In this document: in pieces, positions 1 to 56,624 of the stretch | Position numbering within the stretch: position 1 is the stretch's first letter | Layout of the letters: each line of letters begins with the position of its first letter | NCBI GenBank assembly: GCA_964602715.1 | Contig: CAZRSB010000002.1 | Coordinates: 1,309-65,308, forward strand | Length of the DNA stretch: 64,000 bases | Reading direction: 5' to 3' | DNA from: an uncultured Thermoplasmata archaeon | Lineage (GTDB): Archaea; Thermoplasmatota; Thermoplasmata; Halarchaeoplasmatales; Halarchaeoplasmataceae | The notes under the pieces: generated by a model | The model's input: the letters and a program-made list of their open reading frames with translations, nothing else | The model's database searches: none | Told to the model about the DNA's origin: nothing | Position numbers and translations under genes: made by a program

Positions 1-914
1 CGGATCTACAACCCGAGCAAGAAGAAGATCACTTATTGACGGTAAATTTAGTCGAAGGTGAGGGCAGTATAGAAGTAGAATGGGACGGAGAATCACATAC
101 TGTTGAAGACGAAGATAGTTTTGAAATATCACATGGTACGGAAGTGACATTGACTGCTGAACCCGATGAGGAAGATGTCGAGATATGGTGGACAGGAGCA
201 ATCCCAGAGGATGAAAATAGAGAAGATGAGATAACTATAACTATGGATGAAGCTAAAACTGTCAGGGCACGATTTCTTGAAAAAATAAATTTATCTTTAC
301 AAGTATTTGGCCAAGGAAATGTTACAATTGAATATTGGGATGAAAGAGAAGAGGATTGGCTCGAAGTGGAAGAATCACCAGTATCTAGTGATGATGAGAT
401 GACTCAACAGGTATGGAAAGGAATAGAATTACGAATAGAAGCAGATCCAGACGAAGATCACAGACTAGAAAGATGGGAAGGAGTACCGTATGATGAAGAT
501 GAAGAATATTTCGAAATAACCGTCGAAGAAGATTTGGATATAGAAGCACATTTTGAGGAGATACTTTATCAAACATTGGATCTTGAGATCACTGATGGAG
601 GAAGAGTAGTAATTCGATGGGTACATGAGGAATATGATATATCTAGGCGGCTTAGTTACTCAGATGATACAGAAATTAGAATTGAGCAAGGTTCTAAGGT
701 GACATTAGAAGCAGAACCCGAGATGGACTTCGAATTAGTTGAATGGACAGGTGACATAGAAGATACAGATGATATAATCGAGTTTGATATGGACAGCGAT
801 ATGCAAATCACTGCCAATTTTGATGAAGAAAGTAGATTCCCTGGTTTTACAATGACTCTTTTGCTCCCCGCGATCGCACTTGCTGTACTAATATATCATA
901 AAAAAGAGAGATAA
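1..914 (+). CDS. 5'-truncated surface protein (the reading frame is open to the window start) with InlB B-repeat-like domains and a PGF-CTERM sorting signal
   Basis: Frame is open to position 1; the annotated start is a TTG. It contains repeated ~70-aa modules (VEWTGD / ITITMDE / ANFDEE) matching those in the C-terminal half of the 3419..8158 protein. It ends RFPGFTMTLLLPAIALAVLIYHKKER, i.e. a PGF motif followed by a transmembrane helix and a basic tail. Confidence 0.6.
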   Translation, partial: DLQPEQEEDHLLTVNLVEGEGSIEVEWDGESHTVEDEDSFEISHGTEVTLTAEPDEEDVEIWWTGAIPEDENREDEITITMDEAKTVRARFLEKINLSLQVFGQGNVTIEYWDEREEDWLEVEESPVSSDDEMTQQVWKGIELRIEADPDEDHRLERWEGVPYDEDEEYFEITVEEDLDIEAHFEEILYQTLDLEITDGGRVVIRWVHEEYDISRRLSYSDDTEIRIEQGSKVTLEAEPEMDFELVEWTGDIEDTDDIIEFDMDSDMQITANFDEESRFPGFTMTLLLPAIALAVLIYHKKER

Positions 915-6400: not shown

Positions 6401-8158
6401 ATTGTAGATGTAGATGCTGAACTTCAGATATGGATCGATGGATACGGAGTCGGAGAGATGATCCACACAGAAATGATATCACCGGGAGAACACACCATCG
6501 AAGTCGAGCACACATTTGAGGCTCCGGCTAGGATGAGTCAGATCCAGCTTCACGATGTCGGCGGCTTCCAGTTCGTAGATGAAGTTGAAGAATATGAGGT
6601 ATACGAAGTCTATGAATTAGAGACAGCTTCGACAGAAGGTGGAGAAGTAGTCGCACCTGGAGAAGGAACATTTGAAGAGAAGACAACCCTTGAGAGGGAT
6701 GATGACGCTGAAGATGATGACGCTGAAGAATATATAGTTGTCAATCCTGTGGTAGACTTAGCAGCAGAAGCAGAAGACGGCTATACGTTCTATGGATGGA
6801 CAGACGATGTAGATGGTGCTGATGTAGCACAGATAGCTGATCCAGCAGCCGCAGATACAGAGATCACGATGGTAGATGATCATTCTATTACAGCTGTATT
6901 CGAAGAAGAAAGACCAGACTTTGTGATAACGGACTTCGAAGTCGATCCAGTAGAAGGAGACATCCCACTTGAAGTGACTATAACCGCTGAGATAGAGAAC
7001 GTCGGCGACGCCGAGGGAACTATAGCTTTAGAAACTGATGATGTAGAGATCAACAGTTGGGCCCTCGCACCTGGTGAGGACGCAACAGTAGACGAAACAT
7101 ACACCTACGAAGAAGAAGGTGTGTATGAAGTTCTCCTCGGTGAAGAAAGGATAGAGGTAGTGGCAGGAGATATAGAGACCTTCGAGCTTACCATAAACGC
7201 AGAAGATGGCGGTACGACCGATCCTGAGCCGGATACGTACACTCATGAAGAAGGCGCCGAAGTCACGGTAAAAGCGATCCCGGACGAAGGTTATGTCTTC
7301 GACGAATGGACAGGCGACTACGAAGGAGAGGACGAAGAGATCACCGTAACCATGGACGATGACAAGGAGATAACGGCCCACTTCGAGGCTGAAGAGTATG
7401 AATTGACCATCGATATCGAAGGCGAAGGCACTACCGATCCTGAAGCAGGTACACATTCCTATGATTACGGAGAAGAAGTGACGGTAACAGCTGAAGCAGC
7501 TGATGGATGGGAATTCGTTGAATGGACAGGAGATTACGAAGGAGAAGACGAAGAGATCACGATCACGATGGACGAAGACAAAGAAGTAACAGCCGTATTC
7601 GAAGAGATACCGACCTATGAACTTACAGTGGAGATAGAAGGCGAAGGCGAAGTAGATATAGATCCAGATGAAGATGAATACGAAGAAGGAACAGATGTAA
7701 CATTGACAGCAGACGCAGACGAACATTGGTATTTTGCTGAGTGGACAGGAGATTACGAAGGAGAAGATGAAGAGATAACCATCACGATGGACGAAGATAA
7801 GGATATAACAGCTGTATTCGAAGAGAGCACTTACTCACTCACATTCGAAGTTATAGATGATGATGACGAAGATCCGATAGAAGATGCAGAGATAGTCCTA
7901 GAAAAAGATGGCGAAGAGTGGGAAGGAGAAACTGACGAAGACGGAATTTACACCTTTACAGATCTCGAACCAGGCAACTACGAGTGGGAAGTAAGCCACG
8001 ATGATTACGAGTCCGAAGACGGCGAAATAGACCTAACTGAAGATACCACGATAACGGTGGAACTAGAAGAGGACGTTGGAATACCAGGATTCACAGTAGC
8101 ACTGTTAGCAGTATCTGCATTCATAGCAGTTGCTATCTATTCCAAAAAGAAACAATAA
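3419..8158 (+). CDS. oppA: giant (1579 aa) OppA/DppA-like family-5 substrate-binding protein with C-terminal tandem InlB B-repeat-like domains and a PGF-CTERM anchor
   Basis: Signal peptide (ILSLAIVSILVFSVLVSLGTPVSA). About 130 aa in, TVNPFACNDFRFSLQYLDRVGMIEDLL matches the family-5 SBP signature (NPF...R.A...AIDR). It lies directly upstream of oppBCDF on the same strand. The C-terminal third carries 3 near-identical GYxF(D/V/A)EWTGDYEGEDEEITxTMDEDK modules. The protein ends GIPGFTVALLAVSAFIAVAIYSKKKQ (PGF-CTERM). Confidence 0.6.
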   Translation: MNWKKILSLAIVSILVFSVLVSLGTPVSADEPGEPVNEVSFDTTLEMSEGAAAAAEGNAHIFMHAVDGDVYQGLPSDILANLDHWEVFGGYNPWLINPAHEGNGTSEALAAVDEGWIDDTDEINYLAHSTEEGWTVNPFACNDFRFSLQYLDRVGMIEDLLDGFGEPRWGSFLSSSDLWMEEFYPEINEPYGLTGEGNEDLMWDMLEYSLENMKDNIAFGEFEGTIGDEWTYTNPDGETHDIEIRIPARVEDWRMEKGYWTEDLMQEIGFETHVEPVDLAGALPMMQGASDEYDNLEWHVFMSGWISTAITAYHHWGNAHMFYPWYAMEPVGHAQPEGHWSYGEEALDNPIGPSDEFREEYELPEERPFETLGDANERSDELTDGIVEDEEEYMEDMVRLESAGVQESVNFFLVSTLDFYPYNPEIMETAVPEAVAGYDTYFGPRTMRTYEEHGWDAGDFQGIIMTGEAQPYMDPWNVYGGSDDVYGEYQRRFLREYSDWAHPQTGEYMQLGNYWESELSDENRLQVFERHGDIDSLYDVEETHDIPEDAVKYVPGEERWMTAEEMLELDPDEFELDYLEDLETDLKVTMDIHDYYQYHAPDGWEPADFDLSHVMFNWARVRELGDEEGPFHSETADLNRGAWDQTYAFEFDEEKGTFTIYGDYEMPVDRLIGNFFSTLPEVHPTTYWGFDYLHDSPDYAYEAGEWDQIHQLIDRHCQDMLDELDEWYDMLPPMLDADNIPEEWQDALAWDLDEWQESIDYVEAFIDEREHAFLSIGPFELLYYDEDDHEMDIQRFEHYGYPQPGESAYDVLERAGIPEDEWDDHVVDGMGDHVFEYGYWTEQFHIEDVDFLDVSAPASVDAGSTFNIGAEATWETLFPEPGQANLEHIFDYRFTIRDSVMGEELLVIGSEDIDAEHLDLSSTFDAFDVLADLPAGEYHIQFEIQVEEGDPWAHEAIPIVFDAPAAQIEGDMEVDPADEIEAGETATITADVENIVDVDAELQIWIDGYGVGEMIHTEMISPGEHTIEVEHTFEAPARMSQIQLHDVGGFQFVDEVEEYEVYEVYELETASTEGGEVVAPGEGTFEEKTTLERDDDAEDDDAEEYIVVNPVVDLAAEAEDGYTFYGWTDDVDGADVAQIADPAAADTEITMVDDHSITAVFEEERPDFVITDFEVDPVEGDIPLEVTITAEIENVGDAEGTIALETDDVEINSWALAPGEDATVDETYTYEEEGVYEVLLGEERIEVVAGDIETFELTINAEDGGTTDPEPDTYTHEEGAEVTVKAIPDEGYVFDEWTGDYEGEDEEITVTMDDDKEITAHFEAEEYELTIDIEGEGTTDPEAGTHSYDYGEEVTVTAEAADGWEFVEWTGDYEGEDEEITITMDEDKEVTAVFEEIPTYELTVEIEGEGEVDIDPDEDEYEEGTDVTLTADADEHWYFAEWTGDYEGEDEEITITMDEDKDITAVFEESTYSLTFEVIDDDDEDPIEDAEIVLEKDGEEWEGETDEDGIYTFTDLEPGNYEWEVSHDDYESEDGEIDLTEDTTITVELEEDVGIPGFTVALLAVSAFIAVAIYSKKKQ
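7180..7830. repeat. three tandem ~216-219 bp near-identical DNA repeats encoding duplicated InlB B-repeat-like domains inside oppA
   Basis: Three DNA stretches around 7300-7380, 7520-7600 and 7740-7820 are roughly 85-90% identical to one another (gaatggacaggagattacgaaggagaagacgaagagatcac...). Confidence 0.6.
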
Positions 8159-10178: not shown

Positions 10179-13100
10179 ATGGTGTATAAAATGGTAAGAT
10201 GGGAAGATTTCAAGGCAGATGCGATAGAACTATTTAAAGAATTCAAAAGGCATAAAATCGGTTGGGTTGGCGTTGGTATAATTGCATTTTTGGTGATTAT
10301 ATCCCTCCTAGCGCCGGTGATAGCGGGTGGAATTCCTGATGACTGGAGAGCAGGAGCTGATAGATGGCGCGGCAATCCTGCTCAGTCCCCTCCGGTTTGG
10401 ATGGATTGGATTACTCGTGATGATTATGCTCGACAGGAAGAGATCTTAGAATGGGATGATTACGAGTTCAGAGAAGCTGTTCGAGATGCTCCAACCGAGG
10501 CCGATTTAGAAGTTTCTAGGCTATTTCATGAGGCTGGAGTTAGACAGGTTAATCTGTCTGTTGAAGAAGATGGTGAATTAAAAACACTTGGAGATGCTTC
10601 ACTAGATGTCAACGTAGCCGAAAGAGAAGGTAAAGAGTATATCAACGTGACCGAATTTTCAGTGAGTTACGATGAGGCCGATCTTGAGCATCCTCCTGCC
10701 GAGGTAGAGATCAATGCTGAATTAGAACATGAAGGAGTTTTTGAAGCGGGTGGTGCTGAGAGAAAGGAATTCACATTAGATCGAACTCGATTTAGTGAGC
10801 TGGAACCGTCACCAGAAGAAGGAGAGATTTCAGACGAATTGACAGATGAGCTGATTGAAGGTCTCGATTATTTAGAAGAAGGTGATTTAGACGATGCGGA
10901 GCTATCTGAAGAATCAGAAAATGATGAAGAGGAATGGTACGTGAACGTAGACGGTGAGAGATTAGTTAGGATCGAACAGCCGGAAGAATATGCTTTTGAT
11001 ATGGAAGTAGATGAAGAATATCTTGAAGATGGTTATATCCGTCCAGCATTTAGAAGGGAGTTTGAAGAGAAATATGGTGAATACCTATTCAATTTTACAG
11101 CTGACGAATATGAATTAGAGGATGGAGAAATCTTGCCTGAAGAATTGCGTGAACAATTCCCAACAGCCATTCATGAAAACGCAAGTTTTTTAGAACAAGA
11201 TGGTATATGGTGGGTAACTGAAGAAGAGAGACGGTCATATAGGATAGATGTGGAAGATGGTATAAAGAACGTTTATGAACCTGAAACCTTAGATAATTTT
11301 GCGTTAAATCTTGAAGATAAAGATGAATTCCCTCTTGAGGAAGGCCCCATATCAGAAGAGCTTCGAGAAAATATTACAGAGGCAGGTCACGAATTACCAG
11401 CTGAATCGGAACTAGTCCATGTTGATGGAGAAGAATGGAGGATTGTTGTTGATATCGATATCGTAGATAAATGGGGTCGTCATATAGAGGAGTTCGAAGA
11501 AGCTCAATTCAGAATAGAAGAAACTGAAAGTATGCTACAAATTTATGAATTTGGCTCAGAGATATATGAAGAACATGGCACAAATTGGATCACAGCTGGT
11601 GATGGGGCAGAGTACAGGGTCGAAGAAGGTGAGGTACTGGATGTAGGTGAAACTGAGGTGTACGGAAAGTATATAGAGGAAATATCGCTCGATATGCCTG
11701 AAGGTGAAGAAATCGATGAAGATGTCTACACCTCTGAGTGGACGCTTGAGCCGGAAGAGAAAGTTGAGGATATCGAAATATTCCATACATTTAGATTTGA
11801 TGGACATTATGGAATACATTTGGGAGAACATAGTGAATTCTTCGTTTTAGGAGTGGGTAATGATATCATCGTCGATAGTCTAGATATTACTGAGATAGAC
11901 GCAGATGAGATGAGATATAATGCAGAGGTTGATTTGATCAGTCTTGTGGGAACTACTAGAGAAATACAGATTAGAGTCGAAAGGTTAGTGGATGAGGAAT
12001 GGCACCCAGTCGAAGGAGGTCAACATATATGGGAAGTTGGACCATATGAAGAAATTACAGAAGATTGGGAATTCAATTTTGATATCCCCGGAGAATACGC
12101 TTTCGTTATCGGAGAAGAAGAAGAAACTTTAGATCTGACAGAAGATGAGGAAGAGGATGATCCTGAAACTGCTTCTCGATCATCTCTAAGTTCTTCTGAA
12201 GAAGAATCTATCGATACAGCTTCTGCTGGTGATAACATAACTGTGGAAACGTTTGCCATCGATCCTGATGAAATCACACAGGGAGAACGTGCAACGATAA
12301 CAATAGAATTGAAAAATACAGGGGGAGAAGAAGAAGAGGTTATGTTAACTGTTGATGATGAAGAATTTAGAAGGATAGTACTTGCTCCTGGTGGAGACAT
12401 AGATAGACATACATTCTCATTTACATATGACATGCAGTATGACAGACTCCCAAGAGAGATGTATTTTTTCTTGAGCGGTCATTCTGATAGATACAACAGA
12501 CGAATGATTGAGATAGAGAGACCGGATTCTCAGGAACAAGTGAACGACGATTTCCCGGCTTTAGAGGACCAGAGACCATATATATTTTATGACAATAATG
12601 GACAACTCAGATTAGAAATTGCGGATAGAGGAGATGCAGTAGGAGAATTCGAAGATCGAGTGACTTTATATAGAAGGATGGGTGTTAGGCAGCAACTGCA
12701 TAGTGATGCAGATACATATCTTTCACATTCTCTATCAACTCCAGAATATGAGAATCTGACAATATTGGATCATATGGTTACCGATCCTTTTGAAATAATA
12801 TTTGGACAGGCCAATGAGAACTGGTTAAGCGGTGATCCTGATCCTTTGCAAGGAGAATACACTATAAATGTTACCTTAGAAGGTCAGAATCTCGAATTGG
12901 ACGAAGATGACACAAAAATAGACATAGGTGGTGCTGTATACGGTGTCTTAGGTACAGATAGACAAGGTCGTGATCTTTTCCTAGGATGGATATGGGGAGC
13001 TAGATACGGCTTATATGCCGGTGGCATTGTAGCCCTAGCAACTATAGCATTCTCTACAACCTATGGTATGACAAGTGCTTACTATGGCGGCTGGGTAGAT

Positions 13101-13625
13101 GAGATGATGTCAAGAATTCAGGAGATACTGATGGGCATTCCTACCTTGCCTATACTTATAATTCTTCTGCGATTCTGGAGCAGATCCATAAATGTGTTTG
13201 TTTTGGTCTATGCACTTTTAGCTTGGCGTGGTGCAGCAAGGGTGATTCGAGCTAGAGGATTACAGGTTGCTCAAGACACTTATATCGAAGCAGCCGAATC
13301 ACTTGGTTCTGGATCTTCGAGGATCATCTTTAAACATATGATTCCTGAGATTCTACCCTATTCGATTGCACAGGCCGCGCTGATGGTTCCAGTGGTTATA
13401 ATGGCTGAAGCTGGTATGCATATACTTGGACTTGGGGATCCTAATGTTGTCACTTGGGGAACTATCCTCGATGAAGCTAGAAGAGCAGATGCTCTCTTAG
13501 ACTACGAAAGATCGTGGTTCTGGATACTCTTCCCTGGACTTGGCATGGCTTTAGTTGGATTTGGATTCATATCTACCGGTATGGCCATTGAGAGGATTAT
13601 AAATCCAGAGATGCAGCAGAGGTGA
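10179..13625 (+). CDS. oppC: OppC/DppC-type ABC permease carrying a ~850-aa acidic extracellular insertion after TM1 (1148 aa in total)
   Basis: TM1 at aa ~25-48 (GVGIIAFLVIISLLAPVIAGG) is typical of the OppC N-terminus. The last ~290 aa (GGIVALATIAFSTTYG...IRARGLQVAQDTYIEAAESLGSG...) form a canonical OppC permease core with the EAA-like loop. In between lies a highly acidic, low-hydrophobicity domain. Confidence 0.75.
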   Translation: MVYKMVRWEDFKADAIELFKEFKRHKIGWVGVGIIAFLVIISLLAPVIAGGIPDDWRAGADRWRGNPAQSPPVWMDWITRDDYARQEEILEWDDYEFREAVRDAPTEADLEVSRLFHEAGVRQVNLSVEEDGELKTLGDASLDVNVAEREGKEYINVTEFSVSYDEADLEHPPAEVEINAELEHEGVFEAGGAERKEFTLDRTRFSELEPSPEEGEISDELTDELIEGLDYLEEGDLDDAELSEESENDEEEWYVNVDGERLVRIEQPEEYAFDMEVDEEYLEDGYIRPAFRREFEEKYGEYLFNFTADEYELEDGEILPEELREQFPTAIHENASFLEQDGIWWVTEEERRSYRIDVEDGIKNVYEPETLDNFALNLEDKDEFPLEEGPISEELRENITEAGHELPAESELVHVDGEEWRIVVDIDIVDKWGRHIEEFEEAQFRIEETESMLQIYEFGSEIYEEHGTNWITAGDGAEYRVEEGEVLDVGETEVYGKYIEEISLDMPEGEEIDEDVYTSEWTLEPEEKVEDIEIFHTFRFDGHYGIHLGEHSEFFVLGVGNDIIVDSLDITEIDADEMRYNAEVDLISLVGTTREIQIRVERLVDEEWHPVEGGQHIWEVGPYEEITEDWEFNFDIPGEYAFVIGEEEETLDLTEDEEEDDPETASRSSLSSSEEESIDTASAGDNITVETFAIDPDEITQGERATITIELKNTGGEEEEVMLTVDDEEFRRIVLAPGGDIDRHTFSFTYDMQYDRLPREMYFFLSGHSDRYNRRMIEIERPDSQEQVNDDFPALEDQRPYIFYDNNGQLRLEIADRGDAVGEFEDRVTLYRRMGVRQQLHSDADTYLSHSLSTPEYENLTILDHMVTDPFEIIFGQANENWLSGDPDPLQGEYTINVTLEGQNLELDEDDTKIDIGGAVYGVLGTDRQGRDLFLGWIWGARYGLYAGGIVALATIAFSTTYGMTSAYYGGWVDEMMSRIQEILMGIPTLPILIILLRFWSRSINVFVLVYALLAWRGAARVIRARGLQVAQDTYIEAAESLGSGSSRIIFKHMIPEILPYSIAQAALMVPVVIMAEAGMHILGLGDPNVVTWGTILDEARRADALLDYERSWFWILFPGLGMALVGFGFISTGMAIERIINPEMQQR

Positions 13626-23478: not shown

Positions 23479-23949
23479 ATGAGAAAGATCAATAGAAAAT
23501 TGACCGATGAAGGAGCTTTAGAAGGGTTGCCCCTTTACATGATAATACTGATAATAATAGCCGGTGTTGGTACAGCAGTGATCGGAGGATGGCTCATGAG
23601 TACACAGAGTACTGAATTGGATAATATAGAAGTTCAGGATCACAATAATAATGACATAGATATGATAGATAGTACTGCTGGAGGTGTGATCACTGTCTAT
23701 GTAACTGCATACGATCAAAATGGAGAGGCGTTAGAAGATGTTAGAGTCTCTTTTCAAGGATGTGGTACAGGAGATATGGATGGATCAGTAAATTATACAG
23801 ATGCGGACGGCGAAATGGATTTCACTGTTGAAAGAGATGACCTACGATTACCCGATCATGAACCATACGGTGTAATAGAGATCACAGCAGAATACGATGA
23901 GGGCGAATTAAATACACCAGTAACAAGAGAGATCACCGTGACTGATTGA
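23479..23949 (+). CDS. small N-terminally anchored acidic protein. Its TM segment is homologous to those of the four surface proteins at 51.8-55.5 kb; possibly pilin-like
   Basis: N-terminus RKINRKLTDEGALEG-LPLYMIILIIIAGVGTAVIGGWLM aligns with KG-IPVYLMVLVLISGTVLGAGIWFL of 54920..55543 (P at +2, small-xxx-small, G-W). Its stop overlaps the start of the next gene (the ATPase). Confidence 0.4.
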   Translation: MRKINRKLTDEGALEGLPLYMIILIIIAGVGTAVIGGWLMSTQSTELDNIEVQDHNNNDIDMIDSTAGGVITVYVTAYDQNGEALEDVRVSFQGCGTGDMDGSVNYTDADGEMDFTVERDDLRLPDHEPYGVIEITAEYDEGELNTPVTREITVTD

Positions 23950-25313
23950 AAAGTAAAACACTTCGCTTTTATTCATTTGAAAACAGAAGTGATACCCTGC
24001 TAGAAACTAAGGAGATATTTGGAAGATCTGAAGATCTTTCGGAAGAATTGGGAACCAAAGGTTGTTGTTATATCGGCAAGAATGTTTCCTATCCAGGAGG
24101 AAAGTATGAGGAAACTGGGAAGGCATATTTAGATATAGTTTCACCCCATTGTATGTTAGTTTTAGGAAAGAGAGGGACGGGTAAATCTTACACTTTAGGT
24201 GTGATAGCGGAAGGTTTCGCCAAACTAAAACAAAAGTATTCAGATAATATCTCTTTGATATTAGTAGATACGATGAGTGTTTTTCACAGTTTGAAAAAGT
24301 GCAATTCAAATGAAAAAGAAATAAAACTGATGGATGATTTCGATATCGAGCCAGAAAATTTTTCTAAAAAGCTAAATATACTAATCCCTGAGATCGCTAT
24401 CAAAAAGGCAAATGAAGATTCTGCAGAGCTGCACTATGATGAAGTCCTAAAGATACCTTTAGAGAAGGTTGCCGTCCATGAATGGTTAGAACTTTTTGAT
24501 CTTGATTTAACTAGTGAGATCGGGACACTATTGAGTCAGATAATTACAGGATTGAAAGAAAGGGGGCGATTTTCATTTGATGATCTATATGAACAAATTG
24601 AAAAGACTGACCACGGCAAAAGAGAAACAAGGTCTAAACTGATTAACCTCTTTAAAACCATAGAGAAAAAGAATTTATTTTCTGAGGAGGGGACTAAAAC
24701 CTTTGTTCGGCCAGGTGATATAACAGTTCTTGATATATCCTATTTGGGTAGAATAGGAGATTTTGATCTAAGGAGATTAGTAGTTTCAATATTCGCGAGA
24801 GATCAGATGGCTAAAAGGACGCTTTATACTACTATAGAGATGCAAGCACAGGCGGATCTGCTAGAAAAAGGAAATGAAAAAAGTATGCTGGACAAACATC
24901 CTATAGTTTACATGTTGATAGATGAAGCACACCTATTTTTACCCAAAAATAAGAAAACTCTGTCCAGTTCTCCACTGATAGACTGGATCAAACTAGGAAG
25001 ACATCCTGGTCTTTCTTTGATAATGGCAACTCAAGAACCTTCTGCTTTACATCCAACTGCCATAAGACAGTCAGACATGATAATAGCTCATAACATGACC
25101 TCTAACGATGATCTAAATGCTCTCAAACTCGCGAAACAATCCTATATGAAAAGGGGACTAGATGAAGTGGTAGCAGATATGGAATTTAAAAGGGGATTGG
25201 CTATGATCTTTGATGATAGAAGGAGAGAATTACAGCTCTGTAAGATAAGACCAAGGCATACATTGCACACGGGTGTTGATGCTTCAGCTTTAACTCCAGA
25301 GGAGAAGTATTAG
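23946..25313 (+). CDS. HerA/FtsK-superfamily P-loop ATPase (DUF87-like)
   Basis: Walker A in LVLGKRGTGKSYTLGVIAEG. Walker B / DEAH-like in IVYMLIDEAHLFLP. Downstream, a conserved Q (SLIMATQEP). About 455 aa. Architecture resembles HerA / VirB4 / CedB-type ATPases. Confidence 0.5.
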   Translation: MKSKTLRFYSFENRSDTLLETKEIFGRSEDLSEELGTKGCCYIGKNVSYPGGKYEETGKAYLDIVSPHCMLVLGKRGTGKSYTLGVIAEGFAKLKQKYSDNISLILVDTMSVFHSLKKCNSNEKEIKLMDDFDIEPENFSKKLNILIPEIAIKKANEDSAELHYDEVLKIPLEKVAVHEWLELFDLDLTSEIGTLLSQIITGLKERGRFSFDDLYEQIEKTDHGKRETRSKLINLFKTIEKKNLFSEEGTKTFVRPGDITVLDISYLGRIGDFDLRRLVVSIFARDQMAKRTLYTTIEMQAQADLLEKGNEKSMLDKHPIVYMLIDEAHLFLPKNKKTLSSSPLIDWIKLGRHPGLSLIMATQEPSALHPTAIRQSDMIIAHNMTSNDDLNALKLAKQSYMKRGLDEVVADMEFKRGLAMIFDDRRRELQLCKIRPRHTLHTGVDASALTPEEKY

Positions 25314-45988: not shown

Positions 45989-46465
45989 TCAATCTGGCTT
46001 TACCATCCTTTTGCTGAGTTCCTTAAAGTGTTTCTGAATGGTTTTCTGAAACTCTTCTAAAGTATCTATTAGAAGAGGAGAGATTTTCTGTTTGATACTC
46101 TTCCAAATATATTCGATAGGATTGAGATCTGGAGAATAGGGCGGTTGAAAGACTAAGATAATGTTGAGTTGATCAGCCCTTTCCCTGGTCTTGTTTGCCC
46201 AGTTACGTTTTGGACCGCCGTCATAATCAGGTTTTAGTCTTTCAATATCAAATTCATCTTCGTTCCATTCTTCTAACCAGTTGTACCCAGTACCTTTTGT
46301 AACCCCCACTTCATCTGCAGCATCTGGAACACTTTTTCCTTCATATAGATGGCGTATGAACATCAGCTTTCGAAGGACTTTTGCTTCTAATTTTTTATCT
46401 TGAATTTTCTCATCTAGTTTCTTTTTTGATATCCACTTTTTGAGATCTTTCGTTCTCGATTTCAT
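45989..46465 (-). mobile_element. internally deleted IS630/Tc1-mariner-family transposase remnant
   Basis: 158-aa ORF with an N-terminal HTH-like region and the C-terminal family signature LVFQPPYSPDLNPIEYIWKSIK, but without the central DD catalytic region. The frame is intact but too short to be a functional DDE transposase. Confidence 0.6.
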
Positions 46466-50226: not shown

Positions 50227-51798
50227 TTAGGTATCTTCCTTTTCAGATTCATCTTCTAGCCTTTCTTCAACGCTTTCCCTTACCTTTTCACCGAATCCAG
50301 CAAATTTATCTCCTAAAGGAGAATCTTTTTTATCTTTATCTTCGCTCTCTTTTTTATCTGTTTTATCTTCCTCTTGTCCTTCTTTGTCTTCTTCGTTGGA
50401 CTCGGTCGAGCTTTTTTCTCCATCCTTTGAGGTGATAGATTCTTCTTCTGATTTGCTTTTTTCAGACTCAGAAGTTTCTTCTTTTTCATCGCCGCTTGCA
50501 TCATCTTCTTCTTCCTTATCAGATGAAGACTCTTCTATTTCTTTTTCTTCTGCTTCTTCATCTTTTGATTTTGTCAGTGTGGGCAATTCTGTTATCTCTT
50601 CTTTCTTTTCAAAAGAAGGAGATCCTATTTTTGGTATCCCAACCCCACAGTTGGGACAATTTTCTGTGGCAAAAGACATTTCATTTTTACATTCTGGACA
50701 AACTTTTCTTTTCTCTTTTTTAAAGGGCGAAACCCGTTTATCTATTATAAGTAGGGTTATGTGAGATATAGAGAGAAAAATGAGTAGGCTCAATATCAAA
50801 TAAGTCAAAATGTCGGGAGAAGCATCGTACGCATGATAGATATGAAGGGATAGTGACCCTCCGATCAAAATATTCATGAGGAAGGATGGTAAGAGTAATC
50901 TTTTTTTGATGTAAACTGCTTCACTTGGAGAAAAGTCATAATATTTCAATGATAAGACAGTCAGAAGTAAGATAGCCAGGAAAGAGAGAGTGAGTGATGA
51001 TAGCCAAGAGAGTTCCACAAGATATGCTGGAGAAAGATAAAACAAGACGGGATGAGCATAGACTGAAGGATAGCCTAAAAGCACGACAAGAAGTTCTAAG
51101 GAAGTAAAAATCAGTAGGAAAATTGGGATAGCAAAGGACAAAAACAAAAACAAGCCTTTGAATAAGTTGAACCTTGTGATCGTCTTCCGTTCGACACGAT
51201 CTTTTTCGACCACGATATCTTTTTGCTGTTTACTTTTCACTTCTTTTTCTAGAGGTTTTTCCTCCTCAGGACTTTCCTTTTTTCTCTTATCTTCTAATAT
51301 CTCTTCGATCGTTTTATCCTCATCGTATTCTTTTCTTTTTTCTTTCCATTCGAATTCCCCGACATCTTTAGTTAGATCTTCAACACTGATTTCTTCCGAT
51401 TTGCTATCCTCGATTTCTTCTTCTTTTTTTGGTTCCTCTTTTTGCTCGTCAGCCACATACACTTTTTTTGCATTTTCTAGGATACTGTCTGAGGTATCAA
51501 AACTGAAACGATAGATTCCAGCGAGTTCTCTCATCCCTCCATCAACGATTTCTTTTGGGCTTTTGAACCCATTATCGTACAGTATCTCGGCTTCTTTTTT
51601 GCTGATACCTGGGATATTAAGTAATCTTTTCAATGCTATTTCTTTTTCTTCACTTATATCTTCATCGAGAGAGACCTTATCCTTTTTCAAAGATTCTCCA
51701 CATCTAGGACATCTCATGGATTTTGATGAAGTGGTGAATCCACAACTTGAGCATTCGATTATATTATCAGAGATCATTTTTCCCACCACCCGACCCAT
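50227..51798 (-). CDS. membrane protein with N-terminal zinc ribbon and HhH motif, 4-5 TM helices, a second zinc ribbon and a long acidic Ser/Glu/Lys-rich tail
   Basis: CSSCGF...CPRCGE zinc ribbon; LLNIPGISKKEAEILYDNGFKSPKEIV is a classic helix-hairpin-helix motif; TM helices at aa ~200-330; CPECKNE...CPNCG zinc ribbon; then low-complexity E/K/S/D tail. Paralogous to 55758..56624. Confidence 0.45.
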   Translation of the reverse strand: MGRVVGKMISDNIIECSSCGFTTSSKSMRCPRCGESLKKDKVSLDEDISEEKEIALKRLLNIPGISKKEAEILYDNGFKSPKEIVDGGMRELAGIYRFSFDTSDSILENAKKVYVADEQKEEPKKEEEIEDSKSEEISVEDLTKDVGEFEWKEKRKEYDEDKTIEEILEDKRKKESPEEEKPLEKEVKSKQQKDIVVEKDRVERKTITRFNLFKGLFLFLSFAIPIFLLIFTSLELLVVLLGYPSVYAHPVLFYLSPAYLVELSWLSSLTLSFLAILLLTVLSLKYYDFSPSEAVYIKKRLLLPSFLMNILIGGSLSLHIYHAYDASPDILTYLILSLLIFLSISHITLLIIDKRVSPFKKEKRKVCPECKNEMSFATENCPNCGVGIPKIGSPSFEKKEEITELPTLTKSKDEEAEEKEIEESSSDKEEEDDASGDEKEETSESEKSKSEEESITSKDGEKSSTESNEEDKEGQEEDKTDKKESEDKDKKDSPLGDKFAGFGEKVRESVEERLEDESEKEDT

Positions 51799-52576
51799 TC
51801 AATATTTTCTTGTAGAATATGTAAGAAGCGATAATAGTGCCTATAATGGCTATGAGAAAATTGAGGGGCGTATAATTATATATTTCAGGTCCGATATCTT
51901 CTGCTATTGTTCTTGGTATCTCTCTAAGGCTGGGGTCAGAAACAGGATCTTCTCTGATGAAATTCCAACCTATCCGCAGATCAAATTCGTCCTGATTCAG
52001 ATATCTAGACGGCCTAAATATGTTCACAATGGTTAGCTTACTAGTTTCATCTTTTTCGAGAGTTAATTCTCTGTTGTGAGATCCGTTCATTATGGGTTCT
52101 GTCTGGTTTTGCTTTTCTAGCGTGTCTTTTTCTACACTGATATCTTGAGGCCTGATTATTCCATCGAAAATGGCAAACCCAACATCATTTTTTTCTATAG
52201 CCCCATCAACGATCGCTTCTATTTCGACGCTAACATTGACTCTTCTGTTCCTCTCATTCGTTATCTTCAAGTAATCATGAAATCTTCCATAGGTTAGATC
52301 TATAGGTTCTTTAGTTTTAGTTTCTGGAAAGTCAGAAACGCTGATCCATTCATCCTCTCTTAGCTCATCGCTGATTTGAACGTGAAAAGGTTCATCGTAT
52401 CGGGCCGGCACTTCTGGTATTCCAAACCATATAATCGAAGCTCCTATAACTCCTGTTAGTAGGATTATTATGATGAACCACACGGGTATGGTTTTCCATA
52501 TAATTTTAGAGGATTCCATCTTCATTCCCCTGCTTTTAAGACGGCACATCCAAGGTAATCGGAGTGACCAAATCAT
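51767..52576 (-). CDS. N-terminally anchored acidic surface protein of the conserved G-x-x-G-A-x-I-W anchor family (P4)
   Basis: N-terminus KT-IPVWFIIIILLTGVIGASIIWFGIPEVPARYDEP. Shares LTYGRFH.Y..I and GFAIFDGII.P motifs with 54316..54861 and 54920..55543. Has a C-terminal hydrophobic helix. The start is probably the internal MKMESS. Confidence 0.4.
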   Translation of the reverse strand: MIWSLRLPWMCRLKSRGMKMESSKIIWKTIPVWFIIIILLTGVIGASIIWFGIPEVPARYDEPFHVQISDELREDEWISVSDFPETKTKEPIDLTYGRFHDYLKITNERNRRVNVSVEIEAIVDGAIEKNDVGFAIFDGIIRPQDISVEKDTLEKQNQTEPIMNGSHNRELTLEKDETSKLTIVNIFRPSRYLNQDEFDLRIGWNFIREDPVSDPSLREIPRTIAEDIGPEIYNYTPLNFLIAIIGTIIASYIFYKKILNGSGGGKNDL

Positions 52577-52615
52577 TCCTGAATTTTCGCTTTAAGGTGT
52601 TTTTGTCCTATACAA

Positions 52616-54280
52616 TCATATATTTGATTTTCGAACCATTAAAAATTTCTCTAAAGATATCAAAGGTCGAATTAGTTTTATAGAGATATCTTCATCTTCA
52701 GTCCCTTCATAAAGGTCTAAATTGTTTAGATTATCGTTCATCTCTAATGAACGTTGGTGAGCAGTTACTGGATTTTCGTCTAAGACATCTTGTGCCCTTA
52801 ATTGGATTGTCCTGTTTATCGCTTGTAATATAGGATAACCATCTTCAACAGCATTATCGTGGTCTTCATCAACAGTTTCCCAAATATCATCGAAATCAAA
52901 GCCGTCCATGTTATCTTTAGCCTCAGTCCCAATCATCTCATCTGTTGTCAAACCTTCTCCACCAGCAGAATCCTCTTTTTCACTTGTTTCCGTATCCCAA
53001 TATGAATCGATCACCCGACCGGCATTCTGACCTTGCCCTTCTGTGTTACCTACTAATCCACCCACTTTTTCCCCACCTTCAACATATCCAGTAGAGTACG
53101 AATTGCGAATTTCTCCTCTCCAATCAACACAGCCAGCGAGACCTCCGACTCTTTCAGCATTTTCTGCATAGACATTTCCCAGTGCGTAAGAATCAATCAC
53201 ATTCCCTTTTTGAGAAAATCCTACCAAACCGCCAAATTTATCTCCGCCGTTTTCTGAAATATCGTTTACAGTGACATTGGCAAAACTTCTCCTTATTTCA
53301 GGGTTATCTCTCCCACCTGGAGTTTCTCTAAAACTGTTGTGAGAACCTACTAGGCCGCCAACAGCACCTGAGCCACTGACTGACCCATTATATACCGAAG
53401 AATTTTGGATTATGGTATTTTCACTTCCTGTCGTTCTGCCAACTAGAGCACCGACACCTCTATCTCCTTCAATAGTAACATTTCTAAGATTTACATTTTC
53501 TATCCTAGTATCTTCATCTCTACTTTCTTCAAAACCGATATGACCAAAAAGAGCGGTATTGCTAAGATAGGGTCTATTGATATGAAGGTTTGTTATATTG
53601 TGTCCGTTTCCGTCAAAATTGCCGTGAAATTTTACGGTATCATCTCCTATGGGTAAAAAACCTCGTCCTTCATCCCAAAATTCAGTTTCTTTTGCATCGA
53701 TGTCTTCACATAATTTGTAATAGGCTCCAGGTTCATTTATGATAGATTGAAGTCCAGTTATATTTACTATACAATATGGATTTTCCTTCGTTCCATCGCC
53801 TGTTTCAGTTACATTTTCAAGGTCTTGCGTGATAAAATAGGTTCTAGCTCCGGTAACCTCTATCTTCCTTTCTTCAGTCTCGTTGATGGCGACTGTTTTG
53901 TATTCGTATAAGGTATTATTTTCCAGACCATCGTCTTCTGTGATGGTCGTATTGAACCTTCTAGTTTCATCGAATTGAATCTTCTGACTGTCGGTTTCGT
54001 TCCAATCCTCTGGATCTTCTTCCCCGAAATCATATTCTCTCCATCTAAATGAAACGTTAGCTTCGTCTATCCTTCTCATATGTCTCAGGTTTCCGTTCAA
54101 TGTAGCACTCGGATTGCTGACATTCGAGGCAGCTTCAGTATCCACTATGAGTGCTTCTTCATCATAATCTATAGGTTGTTCTACCCTTGAGATCCAGATG
54201 CCTGCCCCATAGACTACACTAACCAAAAGTACGACGATAGCCAGATAGGCATAAGTTTTTTTTCTTTTTTTACTCTTCAT
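52616..54280 (-). CDS. large anchored surface protein with GLUG-motif / right-handed beta-helix repeats (adhesin-like) (P3)
   Basis: N-terminus KKT-YAYLAIVVLLVSVVYGAGIWISRVEQPIDYDEE. The central region has iterated VGGLVG...N.G.I.NSY..G.V repeats (GALVGRTTG, AVGGLVGSHNS, FGGLVGFSQKG, VGGLAGC, VGGLVGNTEG) typical of GLUG / beta-helix adhesin modules. Has N-glycosylation sequons. Confidence 0.5.
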   Translation of the reverse strand: MKSKKRKKTYAYLAIVVLLVSVVYGAGIWISRVEQPIDYDEEALIVDTEAASNVSNPSATLNGNLRHMRRIDEANVSFRWREYDFGEEDPEDWNETDSQKIQFDETRRFNTTITEDDGLENNTLYEYKTVAINETEERKIEVTGARTYFITQDLENVTETGDGTKENPYCIVNITGLQSIINEPGAYYKLCEDIDAKETEFWDEGRGFLPIGDDTVKFHGNFDGNGHNITNLHINRPYLSNTALFGHIGFEESRDEDTRIENVNLRNVTIEGDRGVGALVGRTTGSENTIIQNSSVYNGSVSGSGAVGGLVGSHNSFRETPGGRDNPEIRRSFANVTVNDISENGGDKFGGLVGFSQKGNVIDSYALGNVYAENAERVGGLAGCVDWRGEIRNSYSTGYVEGGEKVGGLVGNTEGQGQNAGRVIDSYWDTETSEKEDSAGGEGLTTDEMIGTEAKDNMDGFDFDDIWETVDEDHDNAVEDGYPILQAINRTIQLRAQDVLDENPVTAHQRSLEMNDNLNNLDLYEGTEDEDISIKLIRPLISLEKFLMVRKSNI

Positions 54281-54315
54281 ATATTTCCCTATCCAGTTTT
54301 TTTAGATTCTGTTGA

Positions 54316-54861
54316 TCAGTTGTCTTCTTCTCCGGTAATATCTCTGAACTCCCATTTTACATTGTGTTCATTCAGTTCAGTCTCTAGGTCTTCACTGAGA
54401 GTATATACCACGGTAAAAAATTCTTCATCTTGGGCTGATATATTGGCTATATCTGATATTTCTCCCCATTCCTCAACATCGAACTCCTCATCAGCACCTG
54501 GATCAACTATACCTTCTAGGATAGTGAACCCCATCTCATTATTGAAATCCTCCGGTTCTTCGATTTCATAAGATATATTCACGTCCCTTTCACTGTGCGT
54601 ATTGTTCAGAAAAGCATAGGTATAGTACTGATCTATCGGTTCTGAGTGGTTAAAATCTGCTTCATGTATTTTAGTAGTATCTCTAAGAGTGATGTTTTCC
54701 CATTCAGGGTGCCTTTCCTCGTCACTCATCTGGATATTTATCGCTTCGTGGTAATCGACTGAAACTTCGGTGTCCATGATCCATATGGCTGCACCGTAAA
54801 CTACACCTACTATCAGAACTAAAGCTATGATGATCGCGGGTGCAGTTTTGAAGGTGAGCAT
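54316..54861 (-). CDS. N-terminally anchored acidic surface protein (P2), same family
   Basis: N-terminus FKT-APAIIIALVLIVGVVYGAAIWIMDTEVSVDYHEA; paralogous core to P1 and P4. Confidence 0.4.
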   Translation of the reverse strand: MLTFKTAPAIIIALVLIVGVVYGAAIWIMDTEVSVDYHEAINIQMSDEERHPEWENITLRDTTKIHEADFNHSEPIDQYYTYAFLNNTHSERDVNISYEIEEPEDFNNEMGFTILEGIVDPGADEEFDVEEWGEISDIANISAQDEEFFTVVYTLSEDLETELNEHNVKWEFRDITGEEDN

Positions 54862-54919
54862 GGTGAGGTCGCCTGGTGGTTAATGAGGGAAAGAGGGGTA
54901 TAAGAGAAGTGATTTAGTT

Positions 54920-55543
54920 TTACTCGACGTCAGTTACGTCTTCAAAGTACCATTCTATCACGTATCCGTCTACATCATACGGAGATTCATTTTCCTCCTC
55001 GTTTCTGTTAGTGTATACTACTGTTCTCGTTTCATCATCACCACCTGTCAACTCAATTTCGATTGGTTCATCTAGAGATTCTCGCTGTACTGAATAATGA
55101 GTTTCCTCATATTTTACTCGCCAATCGTATTCACTATCCCAAGACCATTCTTCGATATCTTCTGGACCTACCTCTCCTTCTAATACTACAAATGCAATCT
55201 CATCTGTCTCTGAGTCGCCGTCATCATAAGCTGTGACATCGATCTCTATTGTCACATCATCCTTTCCATCTTCTGGATTATCAATTTCGATGTATTGGTG
55301 GAAAGATTCGTATGTCAAGTCTGCTTCATGTTCATGTTCATGTGAATCTCTTAGATGAAATTCACCGTCTCCATAGGTAGTTCCATCATCATCTGTTTCA
55401 CTATATAGGGTTACTAATACAGGCTCATCATAATCCACCGGCACATCCACAGTCAAGAACCATATTCCTGCACCTAGCACTGTTCCTGAGATAAGCACCA
55501 ACACCATCAGATATACTGGGATTCCCTTCAGTTTGTTTTTCAT
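54920..55543 (-). CDS. N-terminally anchored acidic surface protein (P1), same family
   Basis: N-terminus KLKG-IPVYLMVLVLISGTVLGAGIWFLTVDVPVDYDEP; His/Asp-rich segment (HLRDSHEHEHEAD); paralogous core. Confidence 0.4.
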   Translation of the reverse strand: MKNKLKGIPVYLMVLVLISGTVLGAGIWFLTVDVPVDYDEPVLVTLYSETDDDGTTYGDGEFHLRDSHEHEHEADLTYESFHQYIEIDNPEDGKDDVTIEIDVTAYDDGDSETDEIAFVVLEGEVGPEDIEEWSWDSEYDWRVKYEETHYSVQRESLDEPIEIELTGGDDETRTVVYTNRNEEENESPYDVDGYVIEWYFEDVTDVE

Positions 55544-55757
55544 TTTTTTCGTTATCTCCTCGCAGGTCAGGGACTTGAACCCCTATCCCACGGAATATGA
55601 ATCAGAAATGGTTTTTTTGAGTATCTGTTACTTCTCTGACTTGCAATCTTATATATTTGAGTAGATATTATAAGTATATTGTGGTCGAAATACAAACAAT
55701 GATTACCAATACTCCCATATTTATAAATATTCGAACCTGATATAATAGACGGGAAAG

Positions 55758-56624
55758 ATGGTAGAGATCAACTCTGGTGAGGGTAGGAAAAACGAAAAAC
55801 CAGACAAGGAAGAGTCAATCAAGGACCTAATTTCACTCCCTTCTGTGGATGAGGAAAAAGCTGAAGTTCTTTATGAGAACGATTTTTATTCTCCAGAAGA
55901 TATAGTCGAAAGAGGTATGAAAGGCCTCTCTGAGATATACATGTTCGGCTTTGAAACTGCAAAGCAGATATTGAAAGAGGCGAGAGAATATGAGAAGGAT
56001 GAGGAAGAAGAGATAGAAGAAACAGTTTCATCTAAAAAAACAGAAAAGGATGTTGGAGTAAAATCTAAGCAGGAAGGAAAGGAAAAACGAGAGAAGATAA
56101 AAAAAGCTAAGCAGAAGGAAGAACCTTTGTTTAGACCCTTAAAATTCAATCATAGTGAATGGAATTTAGGCGGTAAATTGATTTTTTATTCTACAGTTAT
56201 AGCCATATTATCCAACATATTGCCCTGGGCTAGAGATATGAGCAGTTTTGGCTTTGAGGATGGGACAACTTTGTTTTTGTTGTTCTATATATACCCCTTT
56301 ATCGCACTGACCATGGACAAGCCGATACATGACTATCTGGGCTATTTGATGGGGATCTTTGGGATACTCTTCCCAACAGTCCTTTACTTCTTTTATCCTG
56401 GGAGACCTTTAATAGATGAGATGAGTTATGGCTTTATACTGTTCATCGCCGCTTGCATCATCTTGATCTTAGGTGTAGGAACTTACGAACGATACGAACG
56501 TCATCTCTTTGAAGAGAAAGAAATGGTTATAGAAACAAAAGAATGTTCCGACTGTGGATCTAAGATGGAATATGTTGATAATCTGGAAAGGTGGTACTGT
56601 GAAAAATGTGATGAGTTGAAGTGA
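55758..56624 (+). CDS. membrane protein with HhH motif, ~4 TM helices and a C-terminal zinc ribbon; shorter paralog of 50227..51798
   Basis: DLISLPSVDEEKAEVLYENDFYSPEDIVERGMKGLSEIYMFGFETAKQILKEA aligns with the HhH region of 50227..51798. K/E-rich linker, TM helices, then CSDCGS...CEKCDE. Confidence 0.45.
   Translation: MVEINSGEGRKNEKPDKEESIKDLISLPSVDEEKAEVLYENDFYSPEDIVERGMKGLSEIYMFGFETAKQILKEAREYEKDEEEEIEETVSSKKTEKDVGVKSKQEGKEKREKIKKAKQKEEPLFRPLKFNHSEWNLGGKLIFYSTVIAILSNILPWARDMSSFGFEDGTTLFLLFYIYPFIALTMDKPIHDYLGYLMGIFGILFPTVLYFFYPGRPLIDEMSYGFILFIAACIILILGVGTYERYERHLFEEKEMVIETKECSDCGSKMEYVDNLERWYCEKCDELK

Follow-up and report, generated by a model that had tools for sequence, protein, structure and literature searches.

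A recurrent six-gene cassette of halophilic Thermoplasmata that probably encodes an undescribed membrane-anchored adhesive fibre or complex

Gene content of the locus

The subject of this analysis is a 64-kb stretch of contig CAZRSB010000002.1 from an uncultured Thermoplasmata archaeon (hereafter the window), in which six genes at positions 50227-56624, here called the cassette, probably encode an undescribed membrane-anchored adhesive fibre or complex. All six open reading frames (ORFs) that a sequence-only reading of this DNA had placed here are present at their positions, and five of them, on the minus strand, form one tight operon (Table 1). In order of transcription, the operon encodes two small paralogous proteins (A1 and A2), a large protein with GLUG repeats, a third small paralog (A3) and the membrane protein M. 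A second membrane protein, m, is transcribed in the opposite direction. The sequence-only reading had described both membrane-protein genes as divergent flanks of the cluster; this holds for m, whereas M lies on the same strand as the other four genes. The intergenic gaps are short, 58 nucleotides (nt) between A1 and A2 and 35 nt between A2 and the GLUG gene, followed by 39 nt to the long A3 ORF or 96 nt if A3 begins at the start codon that yields 250 amino acids (aa). The latter start, MESSK, is probably the correct one, as in one public gene call. In the window, the final 32 nt of A3 are shared with the start of M.

Table 1. Positions of the cassette genes and of their main features in the window
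Feature	Coordinates	Strand	Length or residues	Remarks
A1	54920..55543	-	207 aa	first gene of the operon
A1 N-terminal module	55421..55543	-	residues 1-41	helix plus juxtamembrane strand motif, common to all four putatively exported proteins
A2	54316..54861	-	181 aa	paralog of A1
GLUG protein	52616..54280	-	554 aa	
A3	51767..52576	-	269-aa ORF	probable start at 52519, giving 250 aa (51767..52519)
M	50227..51798	-	523 aa	last gene of the operon
HhH domain of M	51463..51630	-	residues 57-112	Pfam HHH_5, E=6.4e-5
Membrane core of M	50734..51156	-	residues ~215-355	from alignment invariants and hydropathy
m	55758..56624	+	288 aa	divergently transcribed

The small proteins form a rare beta-rich family

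A1, A2 and A3 were previously noted to share a core. The similarity in fact spans their whole beta-rich body, as found both by BLASTP (E=3e-13 for A1/A2, E=1e-18 for A1/A3) and with a family hidden Markov model (HMM), which matches the small proteins at E ~1e-57. The family is rare: a word-indexed search of 5.8 billion proteins returns 9 homologs of A1, and an exhaustive profile search of 1.84 billion representative proteins yields 39 representatives of the A family, all without an assigned name. Neither Pfam-A nor NCBIfam contains a family matching A1 or A2 at E<=0.1, or a relevant one for A3, and a profile search of the PDB with the A family gives chance matches only. Searches of all six cassette proteins against PHROGs and PADLOC reveal nothing viral or defence-related of note.

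Three subtypes can be defined within the family. The A1-type carries K-G-I-P-V-Y. A1 itself is composed of K-G and a hydrophobic helix of 20-21 residues, GAG↓IWFLTVDVPVDYDEP (the arrow marks a putative cleavage site) and a beta-sandwich of 12 strands, which is very acidic. Its AlphaFold model (predicted local distance difference test, pLDDT, 75.6) shows a 24-residue helix (8-31), followed by a segment of pLDDT <50 (residues 32-38) and then by the 12-strand beta-sandwich. In the A2-type, the C-terminus is often fused to right-handed beta-helix or GLUG adhesin domains (P0019, P0023-26, P0028, P0029, P0031, P0032, P0039, P0058, P0059 and P0061). The A3-type ends in [YF]-N-x-T-P, a transmembrane (TM) helix and a basic tail, an arrangement kept in P0012, P0016, P0017, P0020, P0022 and P0034; in A3 itself the TM helix corresponds to residues 218-236 of the 251-aa translation, and this C-terminus matches no PGF-CTERM model of NCBIfam. 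Thus, a C-terminal anchor is found in A3 only among the paralogs, and adhesin domains are found on A2 or on the bare N-terminal module described below. A1 is a candidate main subunit, A2 a candidate tip adaptor and A3 a candidate membrane anchor.

A surface location of these proteins is likely, because N-glycosylation sequons are enriched 4-6-fold in A2, the GLUG protein and A3 (2.8 per 100 aa in A2 versus a window median of ~0.4; 14 sequons in the GLUG protein), and A1 and A2 are extremely acidic. The earlier view of the cluster as a coherent surface or adhesion gene set is supported. As regards acidity in general, the proteome of the window is not uniformly acidic, unlike that of classical salt-in haloarchaea: the net acidic excess is 0.21-0.24 per residue in the predicted extracellular proteins and ~0-0.08 in most cytoplasmic ones.

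A conserved N-terminal module and its natural fusions

The N-terminal motif that had been noticed in the four minus-strand proteins is borne out by alignments. The common module consists of a basic tip, a hydrophobic helix and the sequence G-A-G-I-W-x3-V-x-x-P-V-x-Y-x-E-P, within which the strand motif proper, [IV]-W-x3-V-x-x-P-[VI]-x-Y, lies just behind the 20-21-residue helix. In nearly all members, the conserved Trp follows the last charged residue at a distance of 20-21 residues. The stretch G-A-G-I-W...Y-x-E-P is the best conserved element of these proteins, exceeding the globular domain: among A1 orthologs the motif is 85% identical versus 29.5% for the rest, and family-wide the values are 48% versus 22%. 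A3 has the least conserved motif of the three subtypes (32%). The hydrophobic helix (h-region) of A1 is likewise well conserved (64.5% identity versus 29.5% in the ectodomain). Moreover, positions -3 and -1 before [IVLM]W are occupied by small residues in 39 of 46 members, a pair that fits a signal peptidase I site, G-A-G↓I-W.

Five natural A2-GLUG fusions (P0031, P0058, P0059, P0061 and the truncated P0027) bear on the role of the motif. In all five, the hydrophobic helix of the GLUG part is lost and [IV]W-x3-[VA]-x-x-P-I-x-Y is retained, ~3-7 residues beyond the last conserved A2 strand. Since the fusions keep the motif without the helix, the motif apparently works outside the membrane. AlphaFold models the internal motif of P0061 (residues 172-182) as an 11-residue beta-strand (block pLDDT 88), which begins two residues after the last A2 strand (162-169) and is hairpinned to that strand. 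The N-terminal copy of the motif is unplaced in the P0061 and A1 models (pLDDT <50 at residues 32-37/38). As modelled, the geometry of P0061 is that of engineered self-complemented pilins, and the models suggest that in unfused systems the strand may dock in trans on the conserved x-V-x-W-x-F strand of a partner.

The GLUG adhesin

The replacement of the shared core by GLUG repeats in the large protein, proposed earlier, is upheld. The family HMM matches the N-terminal module of the 554-aa protein only (E=1.5e-10), the protein lacks the A-type beta-sandwich, and the GLUG family of Pfam (PF07581) is detected in two stretches (E=6.8e-10; 39.1 bits versus a cut-off of 20.5). A ZmpA region of NCBIfam is matched as well (E=1.2e-7). 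The module is followed by a segment that looks Fn3-like by eye, the GLUG beta-helix and a C-terminal tail. Homologs of the GLUG protein number 1449 at E<=1e-10 and come from bacteria and archaea. Within the cassettes, adhesin domains, whether GLUG or beta-helix, are joined only to the bare module or to A2.

Two membrane proteins with zinc ribbons and degenerate helix-hairpin-helix domains

M is composed of a Zn ribbon, a degenerate helix-hairpin-helix (HhH) domain, a charged linker, a core of ~4 TM helices, a second Zn ribbon and an acidic tail; the latter two elements had been predicted and were found. Both ribbons have the form CxxC...CxxC, the C-terminal one matching Zn_ribbon_15 (31.9 versus a cut-off of 28.9 bits). 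The membrane core, with the invariant positions P225, E235, P244, P257, W265, S272-F-L and S315, has no match in Pfam, NCBIfam or PDB, and in the word-indexed search M has only one other cluster. A profile of M against PDB produces matches to the HhH domain only, including Hel308 domain 5 and the protein-binding NusA AR2. Because basic residues flank the core at both ends, as judged by hydropathy and alignment, the positive-inside rule predicts that the Zn ribbons, the HhH domain and the acidic tail are cytoplasmic. The domain order of M differs in two loci, L001 and L011, where ribbons and HhH lie on the other side of the TM core and the ribbons number up to six and five, respectively. Such shuffling fits modular cytoplasmic appendages, with the HhH domain staying on the Zn-ribbon side.

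The smaller protein, m, consists of an HhH domain, a core of ~4 TM helices and a C-terminal CxxC...WYCxxC Zn ribbon; its core is marked by R-G-L-E-F-N...W-N-L-G-G-K, Y-I-Y-P-F and D-K. The orthologs of m in L004, L005, L009 and L011 are 173-192 aa long and lack the HhH domain, which among m orthologs occurs (residues 16-77) only in the genome studied here and is ~50% identical to that of M. This suggests that the HhH domain of m arose by recent copying of a domain within the genome. The earlier notion that M and m are paralogs thus stands for the HhH domains and Zn ribbons, but not for the membrane cores, which belong to separate families: the HhH-less m orthologs match m proteins only. Nor are the HhH motifs canonical, as had been thought. 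The hairpins read P-G-I-S and P-S-V-D instead of G-h-G, the HHH_5 scores (23.8 and 24.9 bits) are below the Pfam cut-off of 27, and hairpins without G-h-G are also found in L005 and L007.

We also considered M as a sortase-like or intramembrane protease. This assignment is rejected for now, as there is no conserved Cys/His or Ser-His signature, and the alignment of the ~4 TM protein contains no conserved Cys/Arg/His triad of the archaeosortase/exosortase kind.

A separate observation concerns P0101 and P0138, two proteins from the same soda-lake samples and the same series of metagenome-assembled genomes (MAGs). Each is a single chain composed of a signal peptide, a GLUG adhesin, a TM helix, a Q/P-rich linker and (HhH)2, and P0138 is encoded at L014 20-1501, L015 988-2469 and L016 40-1521 (L016 is GCA_003555395.1). 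These chains fuse two themes that the cassette splits between genes, and their architecture makes an adhesin outside with an HhH domain inside a recurring pairing in this MAG group.

Conservation of the cassette and its hosts

The cassette recurs in at least seven loci: L005/L008, L007, L009, L010, L011, L001/L012 and, partially, L004. In all seven distinct loci with downstream sequence (the window, L005, L007, L009, L010, L001 and L011), M begins 0-3 nt beyond the end of A3 or within A3, and m is divergent or nearby in five loci; the HhH membrane proteins are thus co-conserved with the cluster, as had been anticipated. Consistently, a metagenome scan centred on M finds it only behind A3, on two contigs that repeat the L005 and L007 types. 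The genes flanking the cassette differ between loci, with no ATPase or peptidase gene among them, and the adhesin component varies as well. The latter is a separate GLUG protein in the window and L005, an A2-beta-helix fusion in L009, L011 and L013, and an A2-GLUG fusion in P0031, P0058, P0059 and P0061, and it is absent in L007. Distant, non-acidic members of the A family (L017 and L018) are single genes without M or m, and therefore the link with M holds for the halophilic cassette only.

Two variations on the cassette are of note. L009 (738-2483) and L011 (6675-8387) encode, with m on one side and the A2-beta-helix gene on the other, a further conserved secreted protein of 570-581 aa, which the window lacks and which is possibly another accessory surface component. 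Moreover, L001 (1-1491) and L013 (14-4019) are second cassettes in the same MAGs and encode large parallel-beta-helix proteins, some of which (427 and 863 aa) carry an A2-type N-domain. Thus, one genome can hold two cassettes with different adhesin heads.

The orthologous loci are found in assemblies labelled 'MAG: Thermoplasmata archaeon' from hypersaline soda-lake sediments, and related GLUG proteins are labelled Candidatus Saliniplasma. Saliniplasma is a genus of Ca. Halarchaeoplasmatales/Haloplasmatales, the halophilic Thermoplasmata, which are represented by MAGs only (PMC11332174). The window encodes PurL, DNA gyrase, Hef, RtcB, aldehyde:ferredoxin oxidoreductase (AOR) and several transporters, a gene content that points to a free-living euryarchaeon and not to a nanohaloarchaeon, the host that had been suggested before.

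An origin from a provirus or another mobile element was considered and rejected, since relatives have the same chromosomal neighbours and there are no PHROG structural matches. The recurring neighbours are AsnC-Usp-AOR-ThiS on one side and GNAT-ABC2-TetR on the other.

Proposed mechanism and alternative explanations

We propose, tentatively and with somewhat less than even confidence, that the cassette encodes a Sec-exported structure whose subunits are joined through strand complementation, with an adhesin at its tip and A3 and M as its anchor. On the surface of halophilic Thermoplasmata, the four Sec-exported proteins would form an adhesive structure that is not of the type IV kind. After export, signal peptidase I would probably cleave behind G-A-G, and the strand thus freed would pair with the last beta-strand (x-V-x-W-x-F) of a partner beta-sandwich. 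The GLUG adhesin would sit at one end and cap A2, because it has a donor strand and no acceptor domain. A1 would be the repeating or bridging subunit. A3 would form the membrane-proximal base, held by its C-terminal NxTP-TM-basic anchor and translationally coupled to M, given that its C-terminal anchor is the sole one and its strand motif the least conserved, as would be expected of a strand that does not have to be donated. M, and perhaps m, would hold this base in the membrane, with their Zn-ribbon and HhH-fold domains facing the cytoplasm, where protein-protein contact is more likely than DNA binding. A bolder form of the proposal is speculative and, on present evidence, unlikely: the cassette would represent a previously unrecognised class of archaeal surface fibre whose subunits resemble no known pilin. 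These would polymerise by donation of the conserved N-terminal IW-x3-V-x-x-P-V-x-Y strand, and no peptidase, chaperone or ATPase would be dedicated to the process. The polytopic protein M, itself new, would clamp the base subunit A3, and its cytoplasmic Zn-ribbon/HhH module would connect the external adhesin with a partner inside the cell, for example the nucleoid, the ribosome or a signalling protein.

Several points speak against strand complementation. The cleavage site was assessed by a simple rule of thumb rather than by a trained predictor. The length of the helix is fixed at 20-21 residues, aromatic residues lie close to both of its ends (Y/W ... W), and small-residue motifs are present, features that suit a retained TM anchor better than a discarded signal peptide. 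The cassette contains no dedicated signal peptidase or chaperone gene, and no S24/S26 peptidase match is found in the cassette, the window or the related loci. The alignment of the fusion junction comprises four sequences only, the P0061 model has a predicted template modelling score (pTM) of 0.45, and its internal strand may merely extend the edge of the sheet and not fill a groove. All cassette-bearing organisms are uncultured, and polymerisation is itself only proposed.

Some of these points are accommodated by a membrane-bound adhesin complex without a fibre, in which A1, A2, the GLUG protein and A3 would keep uncleaved anchors and form a hetero-oligomer with M and m, assembled through the conserved TM helices and juxtamembrane strand pairing, that displays the adhesin. 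We regard this arrangement as a serious if doubtful possibility. It would explain the fixed helix with its terminal aromatics and conserved small residues, the h-region of A1 being so much better conserved than the ectodomain, the co-conservation of two dedicated polytopic membrane proteins and the lack of a signal peptidase gene in the cassette; furthermore, AlphaFold runs the helix on through G-A-G-I-W. However, the IW motif works in fusions that have no preceding membrane helix, the C-terminal anchor of A3 seems redundant if all subunits are anchored, and the near-universal small -3/-1 pair lies exactly at the module boundary. At the other extreme, there might be no system at all, only tandem duplicates of secreted proteins, each with an ordinary signal peptide, and unrelated membrane proteins that lie beside them by chance. 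Tandem paralogs of surface proteins are indeed common, and the distant members in L017 and L018 are single. Yet A3 and M abut or overlap in seven of seven loci despite differing flanks and a differing domain order of M, the conservation of the juxtamembrane motif far exceeds that of the mature domain or of an ordinary signal peptide, and the fusions retain this motif, so that mere coincidence is improbable.

The sequence-only reading had interpreted the cluster as type IV pilins with class III signal peptides cut by a PibD/FlaK-type peptidase, with conserved K-[G/T] before the helix. Pilin-like features are the combination of a conserved hydrophobic N-terminus and a variable, beta-rich body and the presence of small paralogs and one large adhesin in one operon; the A1 subfamily does have a conserved K-G right before the helix, and machinery genes can be far from pilin genes. 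Class III signals follow a FlaFind-type pattern, [KRDE][GA][ALIFQMVED][ILMVTAS]x3, which only 1 of 46 family N-termini matches. Only the A1 subfamily has G at position -1 relative to the helix; other members have T, A, R, K, N, E or I there, so the K-[G/T] signature does not extend across the family, and Pro at +2 violates the pattern even in A1. The Pfam and NCBIfam models of pilins, archaellins, TasA and SipW signals give no match at E<=0.1, and there is no pilin among the structural matches. The A1 model departs from the lollipop fold of pilins, in which a long N-terminal alpha-helix packs with its C-terminal half on the beta domain: the modelled helix is short (~24 residues), an unplaced, Pro-containing strand comes next, and within the globular domain the helix is not continued. 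At its C-terminus A3 has a TM helix, which pilins do not have, and the GLUG module works without its helix in fusions. Finally, no ArlI/PilB-type (T2SSE) ATPase, ArlJ/PilC platform or A24 peptidase is encoded among the ORFs of >=110 aa in the 64-kb window, and no pilus ATPase, platform or A24 peptidase is found in the flanks of L001-L013, which include the seven loci. We therefore do not file the cassette proteins as type IV pilins, and a pilin-like set whose machinery is encoded elsewhere is very improbable.

Even less credence can be given to a DNA uptake or exchange apparatus, in which the HhH domains and Zn ribbons of M and m would bind DNA and the surface proteins would provide cell contact. 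The HhH fold is detectable, Zn ribbons are multiple (six in L001, five in L011), and the link between a surface adhesin and a cytoplasmic HhH domain reappears in P0101 and P0138. Nevertheless, the hairpins lack G-h-G in the window, L005 and L007, the closest solved matches include the protein-binding NusA AR2, the m orthologs have no HhH domain, and no cassette encodes an ATPase, translocase, nuclease or relaxase. An external DNA receptor of the ComEA kind is unlikely because the HhH domains and Zn ribbons are predicted to be cytoplasmic and the HhH is degenerate.

Other genes of the window

Several further features of the window lie outside the cassette. A 158-aa remnant of an IS630-like transposase (45989-46465, minus strand; HTH_23 and the end of DDE_3) adjoins the MoaD/ThiS-AOR genes. 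An OppC-type ABC permease of 1148 aa (10179-13625, plus strand), of the peptide-transporter kind, has OppC_N at residues 19-50 and the BPD_transp_1 core only at 961-1145, with an unassigned insertion of ~900 aa between them. A second, unrelated set of surface proteins comprises an extremely acidic protein of 1579 aa (3419-8158, plus strand) with four InlB B-repeats (Flg_new_2) and CarboxypepD_reg, and a smaller relative at the window edge (36-914, plus strand). A small Big_1-like protein (156 aa) and a HerA/DUF87-type ATPase (455 aa) are encoded by genes that overlap by 4 nt at the start of the ATPase gene (23479-25313 for the pair, plus strand). These two may constitute a membrane-associated ATPase pair; they lie ~25 kb from the cassette and are unlinked to it in other loci.

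Comparison with known systems

In the literature on this lineage and on archaeal GLUG adhesins, we found no description of the cassette, nor anything on how halophilic Thermoplasmata attach to surfaces or partners. The cassette is thus a concrete and testable candidate for their adhesion apparatus. It comprises a new beta-sandwich family, a portable N-terminal module that recruits varied adhesin domains, and a new membrane protein that would couple the structure to Zn-ribbon and HhH domains in the cytoplasm.

GLUG-repeat surface proteins (PF07581, with a ZmpA/IgA1-protease-like N-terminal region) are represented in the cassette by the 554-aa protein, which has a genuine GLUG beta-helix. Elsewhere, the domain is attached through type IX secretion system (T9SS), PGF-CTERM, dockerin or plain TM signals, whereas here it either depends on the N-terminal module peculiar to the cassette or follows an A2 domain in a fusion.

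Like archaeal type IV pilins, the cassette proteins carry a basic residue ahead of a conserved hydrophobic helix, their bodies are variable and beta-rich, and the small paralogs are encoded in an operon with a large adhesin-bearing one; in the A1 subfamily, the K-G is a further resemblance. In contrast to pilins, 45 of 46 members lack the cleavage pattern, and fusions can dispense with the helix. A basic residue followed by a conserved hydrophobic helix in a set of paralogs does not alone, then, indicate type IV pilins. ComEA-type receptors share with the cassette a membrane-associated HhH protein beside pilin-like genes, but the cassette HhH is predicted to be cytoplasmic, is degenerate in G-h-G, is flanked by Zn ribbons and occurs on either side of a 4-TM core.

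In the TasA/TapA/SipW fibres of Bacillus, with their SipW-dependent-type signal peptides (TIGR04088), the signal ends in G-G-G-T-W-A↓A-F-N-D, which resembles G-A-G↓I-W-F-L-T-V-D of the cassette, and the mature N-terminal strand mediates donor-strand exchange. However, the cassette proteins match no corresponding NCBIfam or Pfam model at E<=0.1, and the cassette has no adjacent SipW-like peptidase.

Strand-donation pili, namely, Sulfolobus threads (Saci_0406/0405), AbpA bundling pili and haloarchaeal Tafi (TafA/E shaft, TafC tip and TafF anchor), share with the cassette beta-sandwich subunits, several paralogs per locus and, on the reading proposed here, Sec/Tat-type export instead of the type IV route, a short conserved segment right behind a signal-peptidase-I-type site, and a separate tip and anchor; the P0061 model, in which the internal motif forms a strand that pairs with the final strand of the domain before it, adds to this likeness. 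There are clear differences as well. The cassette proteins have no homology or specific fold similarity to TasA, AbpA, TafE or Saci_0406, the locus lacks a TafD/SipW-type peptidase, the helix is unusually long and conserved, and polymerisation is only putative. Furthermore, these systems have nothing that corresponds to the polytopic Zn-ribbon/HhH membrane protein to which the cassette anchor is coupled. Archaeal threads and Tafi combine a Sec or Tat signal and a conserved mature N-terminal donor strand with tip and anchor proteins (PMC9715654; PMC12337348), and since they join these same parts, the logic proposed for the cassette has a precedent. If strand donation is confirmed, the cassette would be a fourth, unrelated lineage beside threads, bundling pili/Tafi and cannulae, and its natural 'self-complemented' fusion would offer a structural handle on it.

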